A stretch of DNA of 55,613 nt from Neolecta irregularis DAH-3. Its lineage: Eukaryota. The translations under genes were made by a program, and so were the position numbers. How positions within the stretch are numbered: the first letter of the stretch is position 1; each line of letters begins with the position of its first letter. Location of the stretch: positions 1 through 55,613 of the forward strand of contig LXFE01000132.1 of assembly GCA_001929475.1 (NCBI GenBank), read 5' to 3'. Below are positions 4,708-55,233 of the stretch, piece by piece. The notes beneath the pieces are model-generated. The model was given only the letters and a program-made list of their open reading frames with translations. It was not told where the DNA came from and searched no databases.

Positions 4708-5931
4708 TCAGCTTTTCCACAACTGATATAGAATCGCTAGCAAAAGTATAATCAATACAACCACCATTGGTAGATTTGATCTTTTCAACACCTTGTCAAG
4801 ATCATGCACCCGAACAAAGGAATCGACTGAAGTCGTGGCGAGCTGTTTTCCCGAAGGACTGAATGAAATAGCAGTGATTGCAATATTATGAACATCCGGG
4901 ATATTCGATAATGCCTGGAAATTAGATTTGAAACGCAGAAGGAATAAATCACTTTGAATGTACAAACATCCCAGAGTTCAATACTCAGATTACCACATGC
5001 AAGGGCAAGAATTCCAGAATCGGACAAATCCATTCCACTCACAGCCAACAATCTTTTACTCAACTGTATTTTTCTCCCTTGTTCCAACGTACCATTCGAT
5101 ACATCGTATTCAATGAGACATGCAAAATTCTTTTTCCCCACCCGTTCATTCATAGCACAGACTACTTTATCCTTGAAACAGCGAATAGCTCGTAATTTGC
5201 CGCCAACAACAACACATTTATTGGATCCGTTATGCAAAACATGCAGAGCTTTCGATGTACAATAGAAAACCTAGAAATCAGGACGTGTTGCAACTAATTT
5301 GTACTTTTTTACCATCGGCAGAAAAGTCGATATCGTAAATTTCGTCATCCTCTTTTACAGACTTGATCTTTTTAAACGCAGAGTTGAGAATTGTCAATCG
5401 GCCATCCGAGCTACCAAGTGCCAGACTTGACTTGTCCCTGGAATAACGTGCAACGCTCTAGTTCAATAAGTAATAGAAAATAGAATGACTCGTACGATAT
5501 AAGCTTCTCCAGCGTTCGTAGAGTAGATATCTTTTTGTTCTTTGGCTTCTATCACCCATTTTCCTTTTTTCTGAAACTTGTGGAATATCCGTAAACTGAC
5601 ATTGGCAGTCTTTGTCTGGTGGATGGCCGAGATGATCGTATTCTGCGATATATCAGTTCGATCCATTCGATTTCAATACATTTTTTCCTATTGCGATAGC
5701 CATGGGGGCTTCCTCTTCTTTACTGAGATCTATTTCAGATTCCTCGGAGAGTCCATCTGTATCGATTCTAAGTGCAATCTCCGGTTAATATAGACAAATC
5801 ACCCCATGCCATACAATTTTATTAGAAATACCCGATTTATTCACACCGCCTCCTCCTGTGACGAAAAGCTCCGAATCCGACTTGAAAGTGATAGCGAAGG
5901 CAGGAAATCCAGAGAGGTTGCATTCGAGCAT
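4708..5931 (-). CDS. SEC12: Sec12/PREB-like WD40 guanine-nucleotide exchange factor with C-terminal TM segment (5 introns)
   Basis: N-terminal 'FVTGGGGVNKSGISNKI' K-loop, WD repeats 'HNIAITAISFSPSGKQLATTSVD', C-terminal hydrophobic helix. Confidence 0.8.
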
Positions 5932-6018
5932 GTTGCTTGGTGTGGTCTTGATTGACGCTTAGAGTTTAACCTCCAAACATATCATCAAGCAGTATATTGA
6001 AAAACATTACATTTCACC

Positions 6019-7066
6019 ATGAAAGAGGACGATCTATATCGACAAACTTCGCAATTCAGATTATGGTCGTTCACCCCTACCGCCCTTCAAGATCTCCGCA
6101 GACGTACAAACTCTGCGGCTATCGAAAAGATTTCCGATTTAATACGTGAAGACGGGAAAGAAACATCAGGAGTCGATTTTCTCTCTTGGGAAGAAGAATT
6201 AGAGCTTGTCAATTTTTATGTAAAGAAGATGAATGACATTGCAGGTGTATTTAAGCTGCCGTCGTCTATAAAGGTATACTTTGTATACTTTAATCCACTT
6301 ACCTTTGGCCACCGCTACTACCTTTTTGAAAAGATTTTACCTGCATAACTCTGTCATGGATCATCATCCAAAAACCATCATGTTTGACAAACATCATATA
6401 TACGGCTGATACATCAGGCTCACATGTCTATTTCTCTGCACCAAGACCGAAAATTACTACATTCCTCTCGAGAAATTTGTTTCTACGATACCAAAGACGA
6501 CTGTGGACGATATTATTCCCCTCGAGCTACCGGTATCTCAGAGTTTAAAGTTTTGCTTCTCTGTACATCACCCTTATCGCCCCCTGCACGGGTTTTACCT
6601 CGATATGCAAGCAGTTTTACCAAACTATGAAAAAGATCGGTTGGGTAAATTGATTGGTGATGCGCGCAATGAAATTGGAGACTCTCTATACGGAGATTCC
6701 ATGTTTTTATATACCCCCTCACAGATATCACTGGCATGTCTAAGGAGTATCAACAGCTCAATTATCCAATTATATATCCAACAAAAAATCACAGACGATG
6801 CTCTACGCGAGAGATTGCTGAATGAAATTAGTGCAGCGCAAAAGCTTATCAAAGACTTTAAATTTCCGAGCAAGGAACGAGTAGTAGAGATTGATAAAAA
6901 GCGGTATTATTGCCAGAACCCCGAACGGAATCCCAACAGCCAGGTATTCAAGAAACGCAAGCAGCAGGAAGAAAATGGCGAACTAGAAAAAGCCAACAAG
7001 AAAGCGAAAATGGCAGAACAGCGTGAGAAAGAGGCTGAAAGTTTTCTTGGACCATGTGTAAAGTAG
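6019..7066 (+). CDS. CCL1: Cyclin H (TFIIH/CAK cyclin, Ccl1/Mcs2); first intron non-canonical GT-TG
   Basis: MKEDDLYRQTSQFRLWSF, ATATTFLKRFYL, LTCLFLCTKTEN, VHHPYRPLHGF, LYTPSQISLA. Confidence 0.93.
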
Positions 7067-7153
7067 ATAAAGAGTGGTTACTTGTATATATTGTCGTTTT
7101 TGGCGCGTGGGGTTAAAATATATTTCAGTTGCAGGAGGTTATCTTCATCCTCA

Positions 7154-9102
7154 ATGCCTCTCGTATCTCGCCCTAGTTATTACAGACTGACCTAGGATGG
7201 CAATGAAGATGATCTCAAAAAGTACTTTCCTACCGCCTTTGGGAAGCAGACTACTGCTCAGAATCTCGAACGCAAGTTTAACGAAACTAAACGATCGGTC
7301 AACGTTGTAAAAAAGCAGGTTCATACATTGTCAATCTCACAGCGCTGCTAACTATCCAGAATAATAAAAACAAAGTCGACAGTGAAGATTATGAAATAAA
7401 TAGCGAATCCTTGCCGAAACCAGGGTTCTCGTCATCCGAAGATGAGGACGATGATCTCCCAATTACTCACGAACTTGCTCTATTGTCACATACCCGAGCC
7501 GTTAGCACTCTGACCCTCGATCCGTCTGGTTCTCGTTTACTGAGCGGTGGCCATGATTTTTGCATGAAGTTTTGGGATTTTGCTGGAATGTCATCGAGTG
7601 CACGAGCTTTTCGATCCCTCGACCCTATACCAAACCATAGACTGCATCATATCCAGTATTCAGTCTCGGGCGATTCGGTTTTAATAATCGGCGGTAATTC
7701 GCAACCGAAAATTGTCGATAGGGAAGGCACAGAACTTGCCGAATATATCCGCGGTGACATGTATCTCAGGGATTTGCGGAATACTGAGTACGTTTTTAAA
7801 TATCCTCTGCTAATACAATAGTGGTCACGTCGCTGAAACTACTCACGGCGCATGGAACCCTATTGATCGCCAAACATTCATAACGTCGTCGGTGGACAGT
7901 ACAATTCGGTGGTTCCGTACATAAAAATCAGGACTAACTCGACAGAATATGGGACGTTAACCGAAAATCAAAGAATTCTTCAGTAATATTCTTGTCCTCG
8001 AAGCAGAAAGGACAAAAGACTGAAGTGACTACCTGCGCATATTCCCCCGACGGCAATACAATCGCTGCAGCTGGAAAAGATGGAACACTTAATTTGTGGA
8101 ATGCGAATGGGCCTTTCCACAGACCTACTTTCGGCGTTGTTAATGGACACACAGCTGGATCGCATACGAGTAGCGTGCTCTTTAGTCGAGATGGCAGGAT
8201 GCTTGTTAGTCGTGGAGGTGATGATACGGTCAAACGTAAAAATACAAAATTTATTGTACTGACCCGGCAGTATGGGACACGAGAAATTTCACCAAGGCTG
8301 TCCGATCGAAAGAAGGCCTTGACAATGCATTCTCAGAAACTAATATTGTCTATTCTCCTGATCAGCAATACCTTTGTTCTGGTATCAGTGTATCTCCGGA
8401 ATCAGATGGAACAGGCAGCCTCATGGTCCTCGATGCGATGACATTGGAGACTGTTCAACAAGTTCCTATAGAAAAGGCGAGTGTTATCAGCTGTCTATGG
8501 CATGGCAAGTTGAACCAGGTATGTCTCTTTCCCTAAATGTTTGTGACCAAAAGATAATTATTGGATCATCAAACGGTAAAATCACTGTACTGTATTCCCC
8601 AGAACTCTCAACAAACGGAGCAAAACTCGCTCTTTCAAAAACTCGGAAAAAACGGTTCATCGATGATGATGCATCACTTACTACTGATATCGATGGTTCA
8701 ACACTTGTCAACGTTCTTCCCAGCGGTAATCCTGATCCAACAGATTCTACACAGGTCTCTTCCCGACGACTGGCGAACATGAATCGGAAAGATCCCATCA
8801 AAAGCAAAAAACCAGACCTTCCTTTTGGAGGTTTGTGGGGTACTGGCGGTCTTTATGGCAAAAAACGCGAGCCTGAAAAGATCAGTGAAAATCTTGAAAG
8901 CATGAGAGACGAAGATCCCAGAGTGGCTTTGCTCAAATATGACGAACTTTCAAAAAATGATCCAATGTTCACGAGAGGTATATATCAGCGTGAGAGCACG
9001 GCTAATTGCGCAGCGTATCAGAAAACACAACCAGTGCCGGTATTTGGTGAATTTGAGGAAGAAGAGGAACATCAGGATAAGAAGTTGAAGCGCTACCAGT
9101 AG
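7154..9102 (+). CDS. WD repeat protein WDR70/GAD-1 homologue (7 introns)
   Basis: FPTAFGKQ, KFWDFAGM, GDMYLRDLRNT, SRGGDDTVKLWD, DEDPRVALLKY, AYQKTQP. Confidence 0.9.
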
Positions 9103-13113: not shown

Positions 13114-15360
<2,247 letters not shown>

Positions 15361-15490
15361 GGGACGGGGTCTGGGAGTATTCTGAGCTTGCTAGGCATTG
15401 TTATAACATTTATTTGTGTACATGATGGTAATAGAAGAGATTGACTAGAGGTAGCTGGAGCAGATGGGAGCTAGCCGTCGTGGAGGACAG

Positions 15491-17262
15491 CTAGCCGTCG
15501 TGGAGAAGGACCGGCTTGAGGACGTGGGTGTCAAACTCTACGAACCAGCGGGCGCGGTGGTCGTCGTCGGCAGGAAGGGCGGGAGGCAGGCGGAGCGGGG
15601 CGGGCGGGAGATCCGAGTCCGAGTCGGAGGGCGAGTCTGGGTCCGAGGACGGGGCCGGGTGGACGATGCCGCGGGACAGGTCGATGCCGCGGGGGCTGTC
15701 CTCGTCGTCGACGACCTCGACGCCGGTGCGGATGCCGACGATGTCGAGCATGCGGGCGGTGGTGCCGCCAAAGACGATGACGGAGAGGACGACGACGACG
15801 AGGACGGTCGCGCGCAGGGTGCTTGCGTGCGGGCCCTGGATGCCCGCGGACAGCGCCACGCCGACGGCGCCGCGCAGGCCGGCCCAGAAGAGCATGATCT
15901 GGTAGGACTGCGGCAGGCGGTCGCGGCGCGCGAGGCGGTTGAGCAGGCGGGCGAGCGGGAACACGGCGGCATAGCGGGCGGCGACGACGGCGGCCACGGC
16001 CACGACGGTGAACAGCGGGCGGTACACAAAGTCGACCTGCGTGAACAGCGAGATGCCCAGGTAGATGAACACAAAGTTCTCCGACAGCCGCGCGAGCACC
16101 TGCAGCAGGCGGCGCACGGTGTGCTGCGCGCGGCGCGACATGTTGAGGTACGCATAGTGCTTCATCGTGATGCCGCAGAACAGCAGCGACACGATGCCTG
16201 GGTCAGCCAGCGCCTGTCTGTCTGGGGGGGGTACCCGACATGTGGCAGCCGTTGGAGAAAAAGTACGCCGCATACGCCAGCAGCACGACCAGACACGACT
16301 CGAGCTGCGGGTGCCGCCGCAGCTGCGTGTGCTTGAGCAGCAGCGCTGTGCCGATGCCCGCCGCGCAGCCGATCACCAGCGATCCGCAAAAGTTGAGCAC
16401 AAACACGCCCGCGCCCTCGACCGCACTCAGCGCATGCATCTGCGTGCCGTGGTACTGCTGCACCGTCCCGCCGTCAGCCCCAGCCGCCGGCAGCGCTCTA
16501 CGTACTCAAACATCACGATCGACACCGCGTCGTTCAGCAGCGACTCGCCAAAGATGATCGAGTACAGCTGCGGGTCCACCTGCCGCCAGTCAGCCCGCCC
16601 CCGCCCTGCTCGGAGAAGAAGAAGCCGCCTGCCTTGCACTGCGTAAAGATCGACAGCACCGTCACCGGGTCCGTCGCGCTCAAAGTCGCCCCCACGGACA
16701 TCGCGTCCAGGAACGACATCCGCACAGCCTCCAGCCCCGTCAGGCTCCACGCGTACACAATCGCCCCTATCACTATCGCAGAGATAAACGTCCCCAGCAG
16801 CGCAAACGTCAGGATCGTCCCGATGTTGCGGAAGAACAGCGCCTCCCCGTCAGCGGTGCCGTGCTGCACGTACCTGCCGCAGCTCAAACCCAGAATTCAG
16901 AATAATAGGCGGCAGCAGCAAATTGAAAAAGTACGAGTAGTGGAACGACACTTTCTCCTGGATCCGCAGCCCCGGCGACACCCGGATAATCAGCCCCACG
17001 ACCATGCCTGCCGTCAGCTCCCGCCCCCATCGCGCGCCCCGCACCCGCAAAGATAGACACCACGCTTTCGTGCACCGCCCGTATCTTGCGCCGCTGCAGG
17101 TAGTAGCTCGAGAATAGCGCAACAATAAGCAGTGCTACAAGAATGAAGAGCGCCCACGACGAATACAGCTCCTCAGTCACAGGATCAGACGGATCCTCAA
17201 TGTCGATCTCCGTTCCTAATGTGAGAAACGCACTGGGAACAGTCCATACTCTTGAATGGCAT
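15491..17262 (-). CDS. NHX1: Endosomal/prevacuolar Na+(K+)/H+ exchanger, 6 introns including one GC-AG and one GT-GG
   Basis: SSWALFIL, FFNLLLPPIILNSG, SATDPVTVL, IFGESLLNDAVSIV, SGIVSLLFCGI, LFWAGLRGAVGVAL. Confidence 0.93.
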
Positions 17263-17309
17263 GCTGTTGATCGGTGGGGTGCAGACCCTGAATCGTTGTA
17301 GAACGGTTC

Positions 17310-17317
17310 CACGTGAC
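17310..17317. promoter_or_regulatory. CACGTGAC E-box (Cbf1-type bHLH site) in NHX1/NDUFB3 divergent promoter
   Basis: Exact motif in a ~100-bp intergenic region; the same motif occurs at 20461-20468 and 26898-26905. Confidence 0.5.
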
Positions 17318-17364
17318 TTGTCTTGGTCCCATGCATCCGACACGCCGACACCGTGCATCACTAC

Positions 17365-17566
17365 ATGTCTATTCAAAATGACCCCTGGGCAAGACGGTAC
17401 ATCTCCCAGTATCAGTCCTAACCCAAGAAACGCATGGAGAACAAAACATTTATTCTCACCAGCATCGAGATTTAAAAGCGCGCTCCCGGGATTCGGAATC
17501 GCCTCTGGCCTATTTGCTATATACTGTCTCGTTGAATTCGTATCGTCGTATCGCAACCACGAGTGA
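17365..17566 (+). CDS. NADH:ubiquinone oxidoreductase B12 subunit (NDUFB3-like), one 31-nt intron (17397-17427)
   Basis: Spliced MSIQNDPWARRNAWRTKHLFSPASRFKSALPGFGIASGLFAIYCLVE. Confidence 0.88.
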
Positions 17567-17598
17567 ATTAAAGTAGAGCCAAGATAGATGTAGTCTTA

Positions 17599-18681
17599 TT
17601 ATATACTCTGCAACAACGCTTGTCTTTCACTTCGCGACGATATACTGCTCAAGTTGATCGCTCGAATTAATAGATCTGCTCTATACCTCCCATCTTGCTC
17701 GTCGTCACACCCGTCAGCCTTCTTCGCAATAAGATAAACGCCAGCAAACGTCGATAAACATCCTCCAATAAATAATTCCTTTTGATAGACATCGACCCTA
17801 GAAAACTCGTCGTATAGAATCCCGGAACCGACAATCACGCTCAGCGTGAACAGCACAAACTGGGTAGGCACAACAACCTGCTAATCAGCTACATCCCAAT
17901 ACACCTACCGTAGATTCGAACCGCGACAGTGCCCTGTTGAGAAACTTTACCTGAATCACCGCAGTAACAACCATCACCATCATCAAAACATAACTTATCC
18001 GATACGTAAACAGTAGATATGTTTGGCTTGAAAGCAGACAGGATAGCCCTTTGGTGGACAACACAGTAAACTGGCCAAAGATGGCTACAGTCCCCAAATC
18101 GAATAGCATATTCCGGTTCCCAACAAGACCAGACAACACTGCAAGAACCACACCGAAAAACAGCATAATCAAGGCGTATATAACGAACCCAGGAGACCGC
18201 AGTGCGGCAACAAGTTCATCTGGTCCAACCTGTCGTCAACATACGAAAAATGAACACTTGCCATTCGCTCCTCCCCACTGGACAGTACAATGACTACTGC
18301 ACCCAGACACGCAATTCCAACGCCAAACACCTGACGCGCTGAAATCGATTCATCCAATACTACAGGCGCAAATACCACGTTTGCAATCAACCCTGCAATA
18401 CCCAAAGGAGCCACTATCGACGCCTTTGTAAATCCGTATGCAACAAAGTTGCCCTACCGTCAATAACCACCCAACCACAAGAATACAATCTCGCCAATCA
18501 GCATAAGCAGAAATGCAAACCACCACGACATGGAAATATAGTACTGCCGACTAGATGCAAGATGAGACCGCCGCTGCAGCGTCAACGACAACGAGATGAC
18601 GATGTTTGACACAACGGCGATAAATATTCCGAGTAGAGTAAAGACAGATTGGTCCGCGCCCGTATCGGCCACGCGGTTCAT
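17599..18681 (-). CDS. NIPA-family magnesium transporter (3 introns, one GC-AG)
   Basis: WW..LLMLIGEIGNFVAYGF, APLG, FTVLSTKGLS, QVKFLNRALSRFEST.VVPTQFVLFT. Confidence 0.88.
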
Positions 18682-18777: not shown

Positions 18778-18890
18778 TGATTTAGAGATCACCCAGTCTT
18801 AGGATTTAGAGATCACCCAGCTTATGATTTAGAGATCACCCAGCTTATGATTTAGAGATCACCCAGTCTTATGATTTAGACCCATGTCTT
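18778..18890 (+). repeat. Tandem repeat, 23-24 bp unit (tgatttagagatcacccag(t)ctta) x ~4.5
   Basis: Directly visible between the RPT2 stop codon and the NIPA start. Confidence 0.9.
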
Positions 18891-52955: not shown

Positions 52956-55233
52956 GATTTTCCAGGAAGACGTAGTAGCTGTGCAGCAGCTTATGGATAT
53001 GGGGTTCAAAAAGGATCAAGCTGTTCGAGCTTTAAAGGTATACCAAAGTGAACCAACACGCACTACTGACGATTCTGGAAAGCAAATAATGATGTTTCAA
53101 AGGCCTTTGATTATATTTTTAGTACAGATACAGACTTTCAGGTAATTTTCATTTTTCTAAAGTCTCTAAAGGGTCAATCTGTAGGACATTGATAACATTA
53201 ATACACTACAAGACTGGCCTTCTTCCACAAACGTCGTCGATTTGACTCAAGGCTTGTCCGGTTTATGAAGATAACTGATTGATCAGGCGAGGATGAAGAC
53301 ACTCGCTACGCGCGTCAATTGCAAGAAGAAGAAAATGCTAAAGGACGATCATCTGCATATAACGGCCAACAGATACGGCCACACAGTCATGAGGAAACAA
53401 AAGGCAGAAATACGACTATCTGCTCGGTTTCAAACATGCAAATAGTCCCTTATGGCCCTCGAGAATCCACACCAATCGTCGAGATATACAATGAGCCACC
53501 ACCCCATGAACGCATTCGCCAGCACGGAGCGTATGAGCATTCTAGGAAGCGGTCTTTTAACCCAAGGTCTGTGGTTATTCGCCCAAATTCAAGGTCTCAG
53601 ACAGACCGTAATGTCCTGTCGCCACTTATTCAAATTCTCTATACCATCCCACTATTTCGATCAGTTGTGCTATCCTTAAATCTTGTGTCTGAGCTGGAAG
53701 ACAGAGTGAAACTTCTTTTGGAAGAAGACGAACTTGATCAAGCGGATGATCGTAGTACTTTTCCGCTATGTAGTTCTCGCTTAATATTAGCTCATGCGAC
53801 CCAAGAACTCGTACTTGAATGGGTTCTTGCTGCTCTTCAGTATACCTTTGCGTCACTGGAACTTGGTAATCGTGCCTATGTTTCGGGCGAACCAATCCAA
53901 AAAGCCTTCTCCCTCTTCTCAATGACACAGAATGCTCCTTGTGGCGGAGGCGATTCAAGTATCAACGAACGATATTGATATGCTAATCTGAAAGCTATCA
54001 TAAATTTCTCTTCATTCTGGGACCAGCTTATGCGTACGTCTATAGACAGCAGCTGGTTTTCAGCTTCCCCGAGATACTTTAAGGGTATTTCTGTTGCTCA
54101 AATCGAACTCCTGGACAACATCAAAGGGTACATTTTGGGCATAACTTGCAACACTTAATACTCAATAGCTCATTATTCTCGACCCTAGTAACGCTACCGA
54201 ACAACCCAACATACGCCTACTTTGATATATCTGTTCGGTCGATTTCCGATGCATCAACCACACTTTACGACTACCTCGACAACATCGTTGGGAGCAAAAT
54301 CAGGGAAGGGGTCTATCCAGTTTCTTTTGCGCCCATTCTTATCATTGTTTTTCACAGTGCCGGCATTGGCACTGGAGTGTCATTGCCAGCAGAGATTGAC
54401 CTCGGCCGTTATTCCAAGGAAATGAGCAAGGTGATGGTAGAACGGTTGAAAAAAGCAGACAGTGTCCAGGCTCGTATTCCCGAATGTCAGGCAGATATTG
54501 ACAAACTTTCTTGGTTCAAGGTTTATAGTCTCATCTTCTAAGTTGGCAGCTAACAGCCTCAGACCTATTCAATTGCAGAATTATTAGCTGCTTCTCAAGC
54601 CTTTTTCAAATCTCATCCCCATTGTCACGAAAGTGATGAAAATCCTCTACCAGAAGACGGAGCTCCTATACTCGATCTGACGACAAAAATTGAGAATTTA
54701 CAGCTCCAAGTTTATAACAAGTTAGCGGAACTGAAAGACAAGAAGAAGGGGTTTGAAAGTGAAATTGAAAACTTGACAGATCTATCTACATTGCAGTCTG
54801 AAAAGGAATATAGGCCAAATAAGTATCACTTAAGCGGATTTCTGAAAACCCCTTCGGATGCATATTTTGATAATGACGGAAGATGGTGGCATACTGCTTT
54901 TTCGTCGAATTTCGGGTATACCTCCGAAGCAGTCTCATTCGAAAATTCAGTTAAGCTGGCGAAAGATGATGGAGAGATCATCGCTATCTTTGCTTCCAAT
55001 GTCGCTTGTGAGAAAGAATCTTCAAATATTGCTAGTAGTTTGAGATTGAAGGTTTGTTTCAGAGCAAGAAGTATCAGTCTGATTTCTCTAAGGAACTCAT
55101 CCTGGCTGAGAACGCCAAGTTTGATGAGGAAATTACACAAAATGGTGTTGTCAAGGATCAGAATCAGACTCAGAATGATGAGCATGCTATATCGGGTCCG
55201 ATCGAAGACAATGCAGAACCTGGATCTGTATGA
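52954..55233 (+). CDS. UBA-domain protein with SIM/UIM-like motifs and degenerate USP-like region (Rup1-like), 8 introns, first GT-GG
   Basis: QQLMDMGFKKDQAVRALKKANNDVSKAFDYIF (UBA), VVDLT, ARQLQEEE, LIQILYTIPLFR, YHLSG, GRWW. Confidence 0.7.

Follow-up and report, generated by a model that had tools for sequence, protein, structure and literature searches.

Can the spliceosome of a wild organism remove, from a gene as important as that of cyclin H, an intron that does not end in AG? The 3' AG is the most conserved signal of introns, and cyclin H is essential in yeasts. We analysed a window of 55,613 nucleotides (positions 1 to 55,613 of contig LXFE01000132.1, Neolecta irregularis DAH-3), in which the original prediction had placed a 34-nt cyclin H intron ending in TG. 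The segment in question, 6274..6307 on the plus strand, begins with GT, ends with TTTG and has no internal AG. Once 6274-6307 and a second intron, 6382-6417, are removed, the ATG at 6019 opens a frame of 325 codons that runs to a stop codon ending at 7066. The gene then consists, all on the plus strand, of coding exon 1 (6019..6273, 85 codons, the final one for Lys, with a phase-0 junction), the 34-nt GT...TG intron with its TG 3' splice site at 6306..6307, coding exon 2 for cyclin-box helices (6308..6381), a 36-nt canonical GT-AG intron with a CTGAT branch motif (6382..6417), and coding exon 3 with the stop codon (6418..7066), which carries the Pfam domain Cyclin_C_2. We confirmed that the 34-nt intron is real: it is present in DNA, it is absent from a transcript-derived contig, and its removal restores a conserved reading frame.

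Two sequencing runs cover this stretch, and we compared their contigs, called X1 and X2 here, with the window over 5600-8400. X1, listed as 'DNA?' and with a depth of 384.6, gives one contig over 5600-7464 in which the intron is present, with 0 other letters and 0 gaps. Since this contig has no differing letter, the TG at 6306-6307 is present in the reads, and the AG that could have been expected at these positions in genomic data did not appear. An assembly error at 6306-6307 is thereby ruled out. X1 may be the window's own source, and hence it excludes an assembly error without representing a second specimen.

The X2 contig (depth 151.6) has a joint from 6272 to 6307 that skips 34 letters and can slide by 2. 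X2 is also listed as 'DNA?', and its contig skips nine segments of 34-41 nt, namely five GT..AG, two CT..AC (in a minus-strand gene), one GC..AG and 6274-6307 itself. We take X2 as RNA-derived because nine introns are skipped in it. The joint has three equivalent placements, GG..TT, GT..TG and TA..GG, and the GT..TG placement (6274-6307) is the one that starts with GT. The X2 record has exactly 75 letters between the listed pieces, which is the length of 6307-6381, and thus there is no insertion at the joint. The cDNA junction 6273/6308 that was proposed from the letters of the window is therefore the one found in the spliced contig, rather than a different one, and the 34-nt length and the TG end both stand. 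The same contig covers coding exons 1 and 3 and skips the canonical intron 6382-6417. X2 represents a separate haplotype, since about 2430 exonic bases contain two departures from the window, one at 7018 and the other a 3-nt gap at 5981; its own intron letters are not visible, and the genomic TG and the splicing thus come from different haplotypes and not from one specimen. Contigs carry no splicing efficiency and drop rare forms. Read-through of the intron meets a stop after 109 residues, and there could be substantial intron retention with this 109-aa product, or use of the AG ending at 6333 with an 89-aa product. In the neighbouring WD40 gene, at 7435-7525, X1 has low-depth variant contigs with depths of 15-88 vs about 400.

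Homologous proteins also bear on the junction. We scored 1072 in-frame removals with a profile made from 154 non-Neolecta homologues, and the GT-TG splice ranks joint first with its two sliding equivalents, at 434.9 bits. The models ending in AG rank 857, 881, 937 and 948 of 1072, the best of them having 387.1 bits, 47.8 bits below the GT-TG splice. We also enumerated the canonical alternatives with donors at 6100-6339 and acceptors up to 6459, and with every in-frame GT/GC-AG choice among them some of the cyclin box is lost or scrambled. The first AG beyond the intron, ending at 6333, is out of frame for both GT donors, 6274 and 6283, as had been noticed at the outset. Across the junction, 138 of the 154 homologues share the same 14-residue span from Pro to Arg, while 6 are without the anchor residue and 10 are different. 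The claim that splicing restores the cyclin-box motif is hence borne out, with the spliced frame open and the register of the homologues kept.

The protein itself appears ordinary. A JGI protein of 325 aa, P0002, is identical to the spliced model at 295 of 325 positions (91%) and across the junction; it probably comes from a transcript of a related fungus, and it sits on a 1052-base contig, a size that alone still leaves room for two introns. The best matches of this near-identical protein are Ccl1 in the PDB (E 4e-52) and human cyclin H (E 8e-38), and its match to cyclin C (E 5e-12) is weaker than that to Ccl1, so the assignment to cyclin H/Ccl1, already made in the original prediction, is favoured over cyclin C, T and L. 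In the comparison with Cyclin H / Ccl1 / Mcs2 (PDB 7kue_B and 1kxu_A), yeast Ccl1 aligns gap-free over the junction region after removal of the intron, as shown for P0002, and the oddity of the gene is the end of its intron. A search with the read-through protein yielded no candidate, and one metagenome scan returned a single distant locus, which stops short of the intron. Three homologues, P0074, P0105 and P0128, have inserts exactly at the K|A position of the junction, starting with V-R or A-R and ending in Q in two of them. These inserts read like retained GT/GC...CAG introns (the CAG end in two), and we infer from them that the intron position is old and normally a canonical U2 site.

The public gene model misses this structure. 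A search with exon 3 showed that OLL26931.1, 'Cyclin CCL1 [Neolecta irregularis DAH-3]', is 100% identical to the exon 3 translation, and the whole entry is reproduced exactly by one 172-nt GT-AG intron at 6274-6445. In imposing a GT-AG intron, the annotation left out exon 2, and the protein is short of 34 cyclin-box residues; among the 1072 removals this model ranks last, at 326.4 bits. Comparative use of this much-used genome may therefore count false losses. Upstream of the start codon, X2 also skips a 35-nt GC-AG intron with a TTGAC branch motif (5928..5962, plus strand), which is probably in the 5' UTR of cyclin H. This intron overlaps the start codon (5931) of a gene model on the opposite strand, and therefore the 5' ends of both transcripts probably overlap.

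How does the intron compare with its neighbours? We used a simple gene finder trained on the window and assembled 72 reference introns, 8 being the others seen in X2 and 64 being predictions with a score above 0 and at most 45 nt, a filter that biases the set toward consensus introns. Plus-strand predictions before 1300 and at 15400-17100, the latter an antisense shadow of the Nhx1 gene, were dropped. In one run non-AG ends were allowed at a penalty, and the gene finder chose 6274-6307 with no homology input; this run also offered further non-canonical introns, of which several proved false when inspected. The TG intron with its 34 nt is close to the reference median of 35 nt. The reference donors are very loose, with 49 different hexamers among 72, and the donor score of the TG intron is higher than 24 of the 72, within the local range of U2 donors. 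Its 5' splice site, GTATACTTT, occurs twice head to tail in a 9-nt tandem duplication at 6274..6291 on the plus strand; the two 9-mers are identical and lie 9 nt apart (6274 and 6283), and only the first is seen used. The duplicated unit exceeds the longest one in the 72 reference introns (7 nt), which hints at past remodelling of the intron. As side observations on the reference set, 8 of the 72 introns start with GC and 13 end with AAG or GAG, and these are mostly predicted.

The branch site can be placed with the same set. YTRAY with its A at -6 to -12 is found in 59 of the 72 references, one has it only at -19 and 12 have none by pattern, and the reference branch A is intron base 22-33, mostly 26-29. 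The most likely branch site of the TG intron is CACTTAC at 6296..6302 on the plus strand, with the putative branch A at 6301, 7 nt from the 3' end. This A is the 28th intron base, inside the reference peak. CACTTAC scores above 7 of the 72 references and pairs with U2 at 4 of 6 positions, and it is not YTRAY, having a pyrimidine at -1, as do 2 of the 72 references and three further low-scoring predicted GT-AG introns. The sole YTRAY of the intron, TTAAT in the alternative motif at 6288..6294 (plus strand, A at 6293), lies at -15, outside the local U2 range, and this A is base 20, below the reference range. The last 20 nt of the intron are 0.78 pyrimidine, a value reached by 0 of the 72 references. 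The next AG, the one ending at 6333, is 26 nt beyond the TG and about 32 nt past A6301. We also considered an antisense intron or a small inversion, for 6302-6266 on the minus strand could be taken for a 37-nt GT-AG intron; its donor is strong and is the reverse complement of the sense branch site. This candidate was rejected, as its branch score of -3.93 is lower than those of all 72 references and the observed joint is the 34-nt one of the sense strand.

Our analysis suggests, with a probability of about 0.8, that the spliceosome removes this segment as a true intron of the major (U2) class and that the TG is its only productive 3' splice site. The canonical GT-AG class ends in YAG/AG, and the window and the X1 contig have TG there, so the intron falls outside that class. 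We propose that U1 and U6 would recognise the GT donor at 6274 and that U2 would pair with CACTTAC, with branching at A6301, at a spacing typical for introns of ~35 nt. The second step might then dock the nearest G preceded by a pyrimidine, G6307, because no AG is within reach of the branch A. The 3' cut would be set by distance, the terminal G that contacts the first G of the intron being kept and only A(-2) being given up, and the pyrimidine-rich 3' half probably helps. This would require a spliceosome that does not need AG at the first step and that proofreads position -2 loosely, and such loose proofreading fits two further non-AG candidates in the window. We speculate that the major spliceosome of Neolecta may be largely blind to A(-2) and, in introns of ~35 nt, cut at whichever suitable G comes first, about 6-12 nt beyond the branch A. 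Conserved housekeeping genes (cyclin H, probably also Nhx1 and a PAK kinase) would then rely on TG, CG and GG as obligatory acceptors; we hold the odds on this wider proposal to be even.

The two further candidates are supported by homology. The gene of the Na+/H+ exchanger Nhx1 has a predicted 38-nt GT..GG intron at 16505-16468 on the minus strand, with CTGAC at -7. It ties for first of 1146 models scored with 120 homologues, and the best model ending in AG is 145th and 14 bits lower; the same spacing is seen in 29 of the 33 homologues matched by pattern, 87 of the 120 being unmatched by it. A PAK/Cla4-type kinase gene has a predicted 35-nt GT..CG intron at 14714-14748 on the plus strand, with CTGAT at -10. 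Its removal leaves the protein exactly in line with the PAK chains 2f57_A and 8c12, whereas with the in-frame AG 9 nt downstream three residues would be lost. The contig comparison with reads spanned 5600-8400, and the Nhx1 and PAK introns rest on homology. Near the start of an Rpt2-like proteasome ATPase gene there is a possible GT..CG intron at 20298-20263 on the minus strand, in a poorly conserved region where an AG in frame 6 nt further on would be an equally plausible end.

Two rival accounts concern the origin of the evidence. The TG could be a private mutation of the sequenced specimen, in which splicing would be impaired or lost, and the spliced contig would come from a haplotype bearing AG. 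This is improbable in our view. X2 does have another organism and sample code as well as the 2 differences in about 2430 exonic bases, and the 9-nt tandem duplication suggests a remodelled intron, but a difference at one given base is unlikely at such low divergence, and the coding frame shows no other damage and shares 91% identity with P0002. Moreover, the window has two more non-AG candidates with good branch motifs, and hence the TG requires no special accident. A switch of template by reverse transcriptase across a hairpin, which would produce the joint with no splicing at all, is the least credible of the accounts considered. The donor region and the 3' end of the intron can form a perfect stem of 7 bp, longer than in any of the 72 references, and the MFE structure of 6255-6325 pairs the intron ends. 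Yet the folding z-score is -1.0 with 31 of 200 shuffles equally stable, the end-to-end pairing probability is 0.06 in a second folding window, a value reached by 28 of the 72 introns, and the two sides of the joint have just 2 letters in common. The joint also lies on the single contig that X2 has here, and it restores the exact homologous protein, which is seen in P0002 as well. Splicing guided by the hairpin was ruled out too, the folding not being significant.

The other two accounts accept splicing and change its machinery or its definition. U12 introns have the donor consensus RTATCCTTT with a nearly invariant +5, a branch consensus like TTCCTTAAC at 10-20 nt from the 3' end, and a lax 3' end. 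The intron could accordingly be of the minor (U12) type or derived from it, with GTATACTTT as donor and A6293 as branch A, which would mean that minor splicing survives in an ascomycete; we consider this very unlikely. The donor has one mismatch to the consensus where all 72 reference donors have at least 2, a closeness of about 0.002 by position frequencies that was noticed post hoc, and the sole YTRAY lies at -15, a U12-like geometry. The mismatch, however, falls on +5, so that the donor departs from RTATCCTTT, the branch motif has 3 mismatches and is matched or bettered by 14 of the 72 ordinary introns, and A6293 would be no further than base 20. The 9-nt duplication gave rise to both motifs, predicted canonical GT-AG introns at 2989 and 31360 also open with GTATAC, and the inserts that other fungi have at the same position resemble U2-type introns. 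On the minus strand, at 1998, a perfect U12-like 9-mer was also examined; it was set aside because the glycyl-tRNA synthetase gene has an ordinary 34-nt GT-AG intron there, with the 9-mer inside it. An Rfam scan of the window alone gave 0 families. One GT-TG intron of the U12 type, from mouse, is tabulated by Sheth et al. (PMC1557818, Table 2), and the intron here shares with non-canonical U12-type introns (PMC1557818, PMC10639083) the non-AG end, a U12-like donor and a branch-like motif at 15 nt, but it differs from them by the +5 mismatch, the weak U12 branch match, the 34 nt and a lineage reported to be without minor introns. In the sections available, Larue and Roy (PMC10639083) did not detect convincing minor introns in Ascomycota, nor did Olthof et al. 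(PMC11347168) detect minor snRNAs in the Ascomycota that were sampled, both main texts leaving Neolecta unnamed; the part available of the PMC10639083 supplement, whose species table is elsewhere, names neither Neolecta nor CCNH, and our literature search gave no paper on a U12-type intron in CCNH. A tandem of TG and AG as in human genes appears just as unlikely. In it the AG at 6332-6333 would serve to define the intron at the first step and the second step would pick the TG, perhaps with a share of unproductive use of the AG. With 26 nt between them, this AG and the TG respect the 28-nt limit of the human tandems (PMC2374985), but the local branch-to-AG distances are 6-12 nt and it is over 30 nt from both A6301 and A6293. 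Its use would give a 60-nt intron and a truncated protein of 89 aa, and X2 has no such joint, though contigs drop rare forms.

The preferred reading, a major-class intron with TG as its only productive end, can be compared with known systems. Szafranski et al. 2007 (PMC2374985) verified TG acceptors in 36 human genes, each with an AG as its neighbour; constitutive TG acceptors were, in their account, not found in humans. The human U2-dependent TG sites share with the Neolecta intron the GT donor, the TG acceptor, a pyrimidine at -3 and a purine at +1, and they are thought to be chosen by the major spliceosome at the second step, which we likewise propose for Neolecta. In contrast, the human TG is an alternative beside an AG, whereas in Neolecta a functional product comes from the TG alone; the AG next to it is out of frame and beyond the local branch range, and the intron has 34 nt. 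Sheth et al. 2006 (PMC1557818) also reported a conserved U2-type GT-TG intron in ARS2. In Saccharomyces cerevisiae lacking Prp18, BG acceptors are activated and U tracts help (Roy et al. 2023, PMC10711555); UUG is among the most used BG sites, branch-proximal sites are favoured and contact with the first intron G helps. Both these BG sites and the Neolecta TG keep the terminal G and replace A(-2), but in yeast their use is an error of a mutant in competition with the annotated AG, while the TG is the productive site of a wild-type gene. We use the yeast without Prp18 as a working analogy, not as evidence about Neolecta.

TG acceptors as such are already known, and what is apparently new is a GT-TG intron that looks obligatory. 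The sections available of Frey and Pucker (PMC7072748) make no mention of GT-TG or Neolecta, the words 'intron' and 'splic' are absent from the main text of the genome paper (PMC5309816), and PMC8476143 names Neolecta irregularis once, as a data source. Our search, mostly outside subscription journals and in main texts, found no paper on unusual splice sites of Neolecta. If a conserved gene of the cell cycle and of transcription depends on a TG acceptor, a natural spliceosome can dispense with A(-2), in contrast to the conclusion drawn for human TG acceptors, that they need an alternative AG (PMC2374985). If this holds genome-wide, Neolecta would live in nature with a 3' fidelity as relaxed as budding yeast has only when Prp18 is missing. 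If it is routine, it would provide a natural system for finding what enforces the AG rule, and a comparison of Prp18, Slu7, Prp8 and U2AF with those of fission-yeast-like relatives would test 3' splice-site fidelity directly.

Several other features of the window were observed. In a UBA-domain gene, the gene finder also picked a non-AG end for the intron 53038-53078 (plus strand). A long open frame at 87-1205 on the plus strand has a repetitive start rich in Thr, Pro, Leu and Ala and no Pfam match. Just 3' of the Rpt2-like gene, at 18810-18880, there is a short tandem repeat with three copies of a unit of about 26 nt. The GC content is 56-58% in 14000-18000, which covers the end of the kinase gene and the Nhx1 gene, vs about 42% elsewhere.
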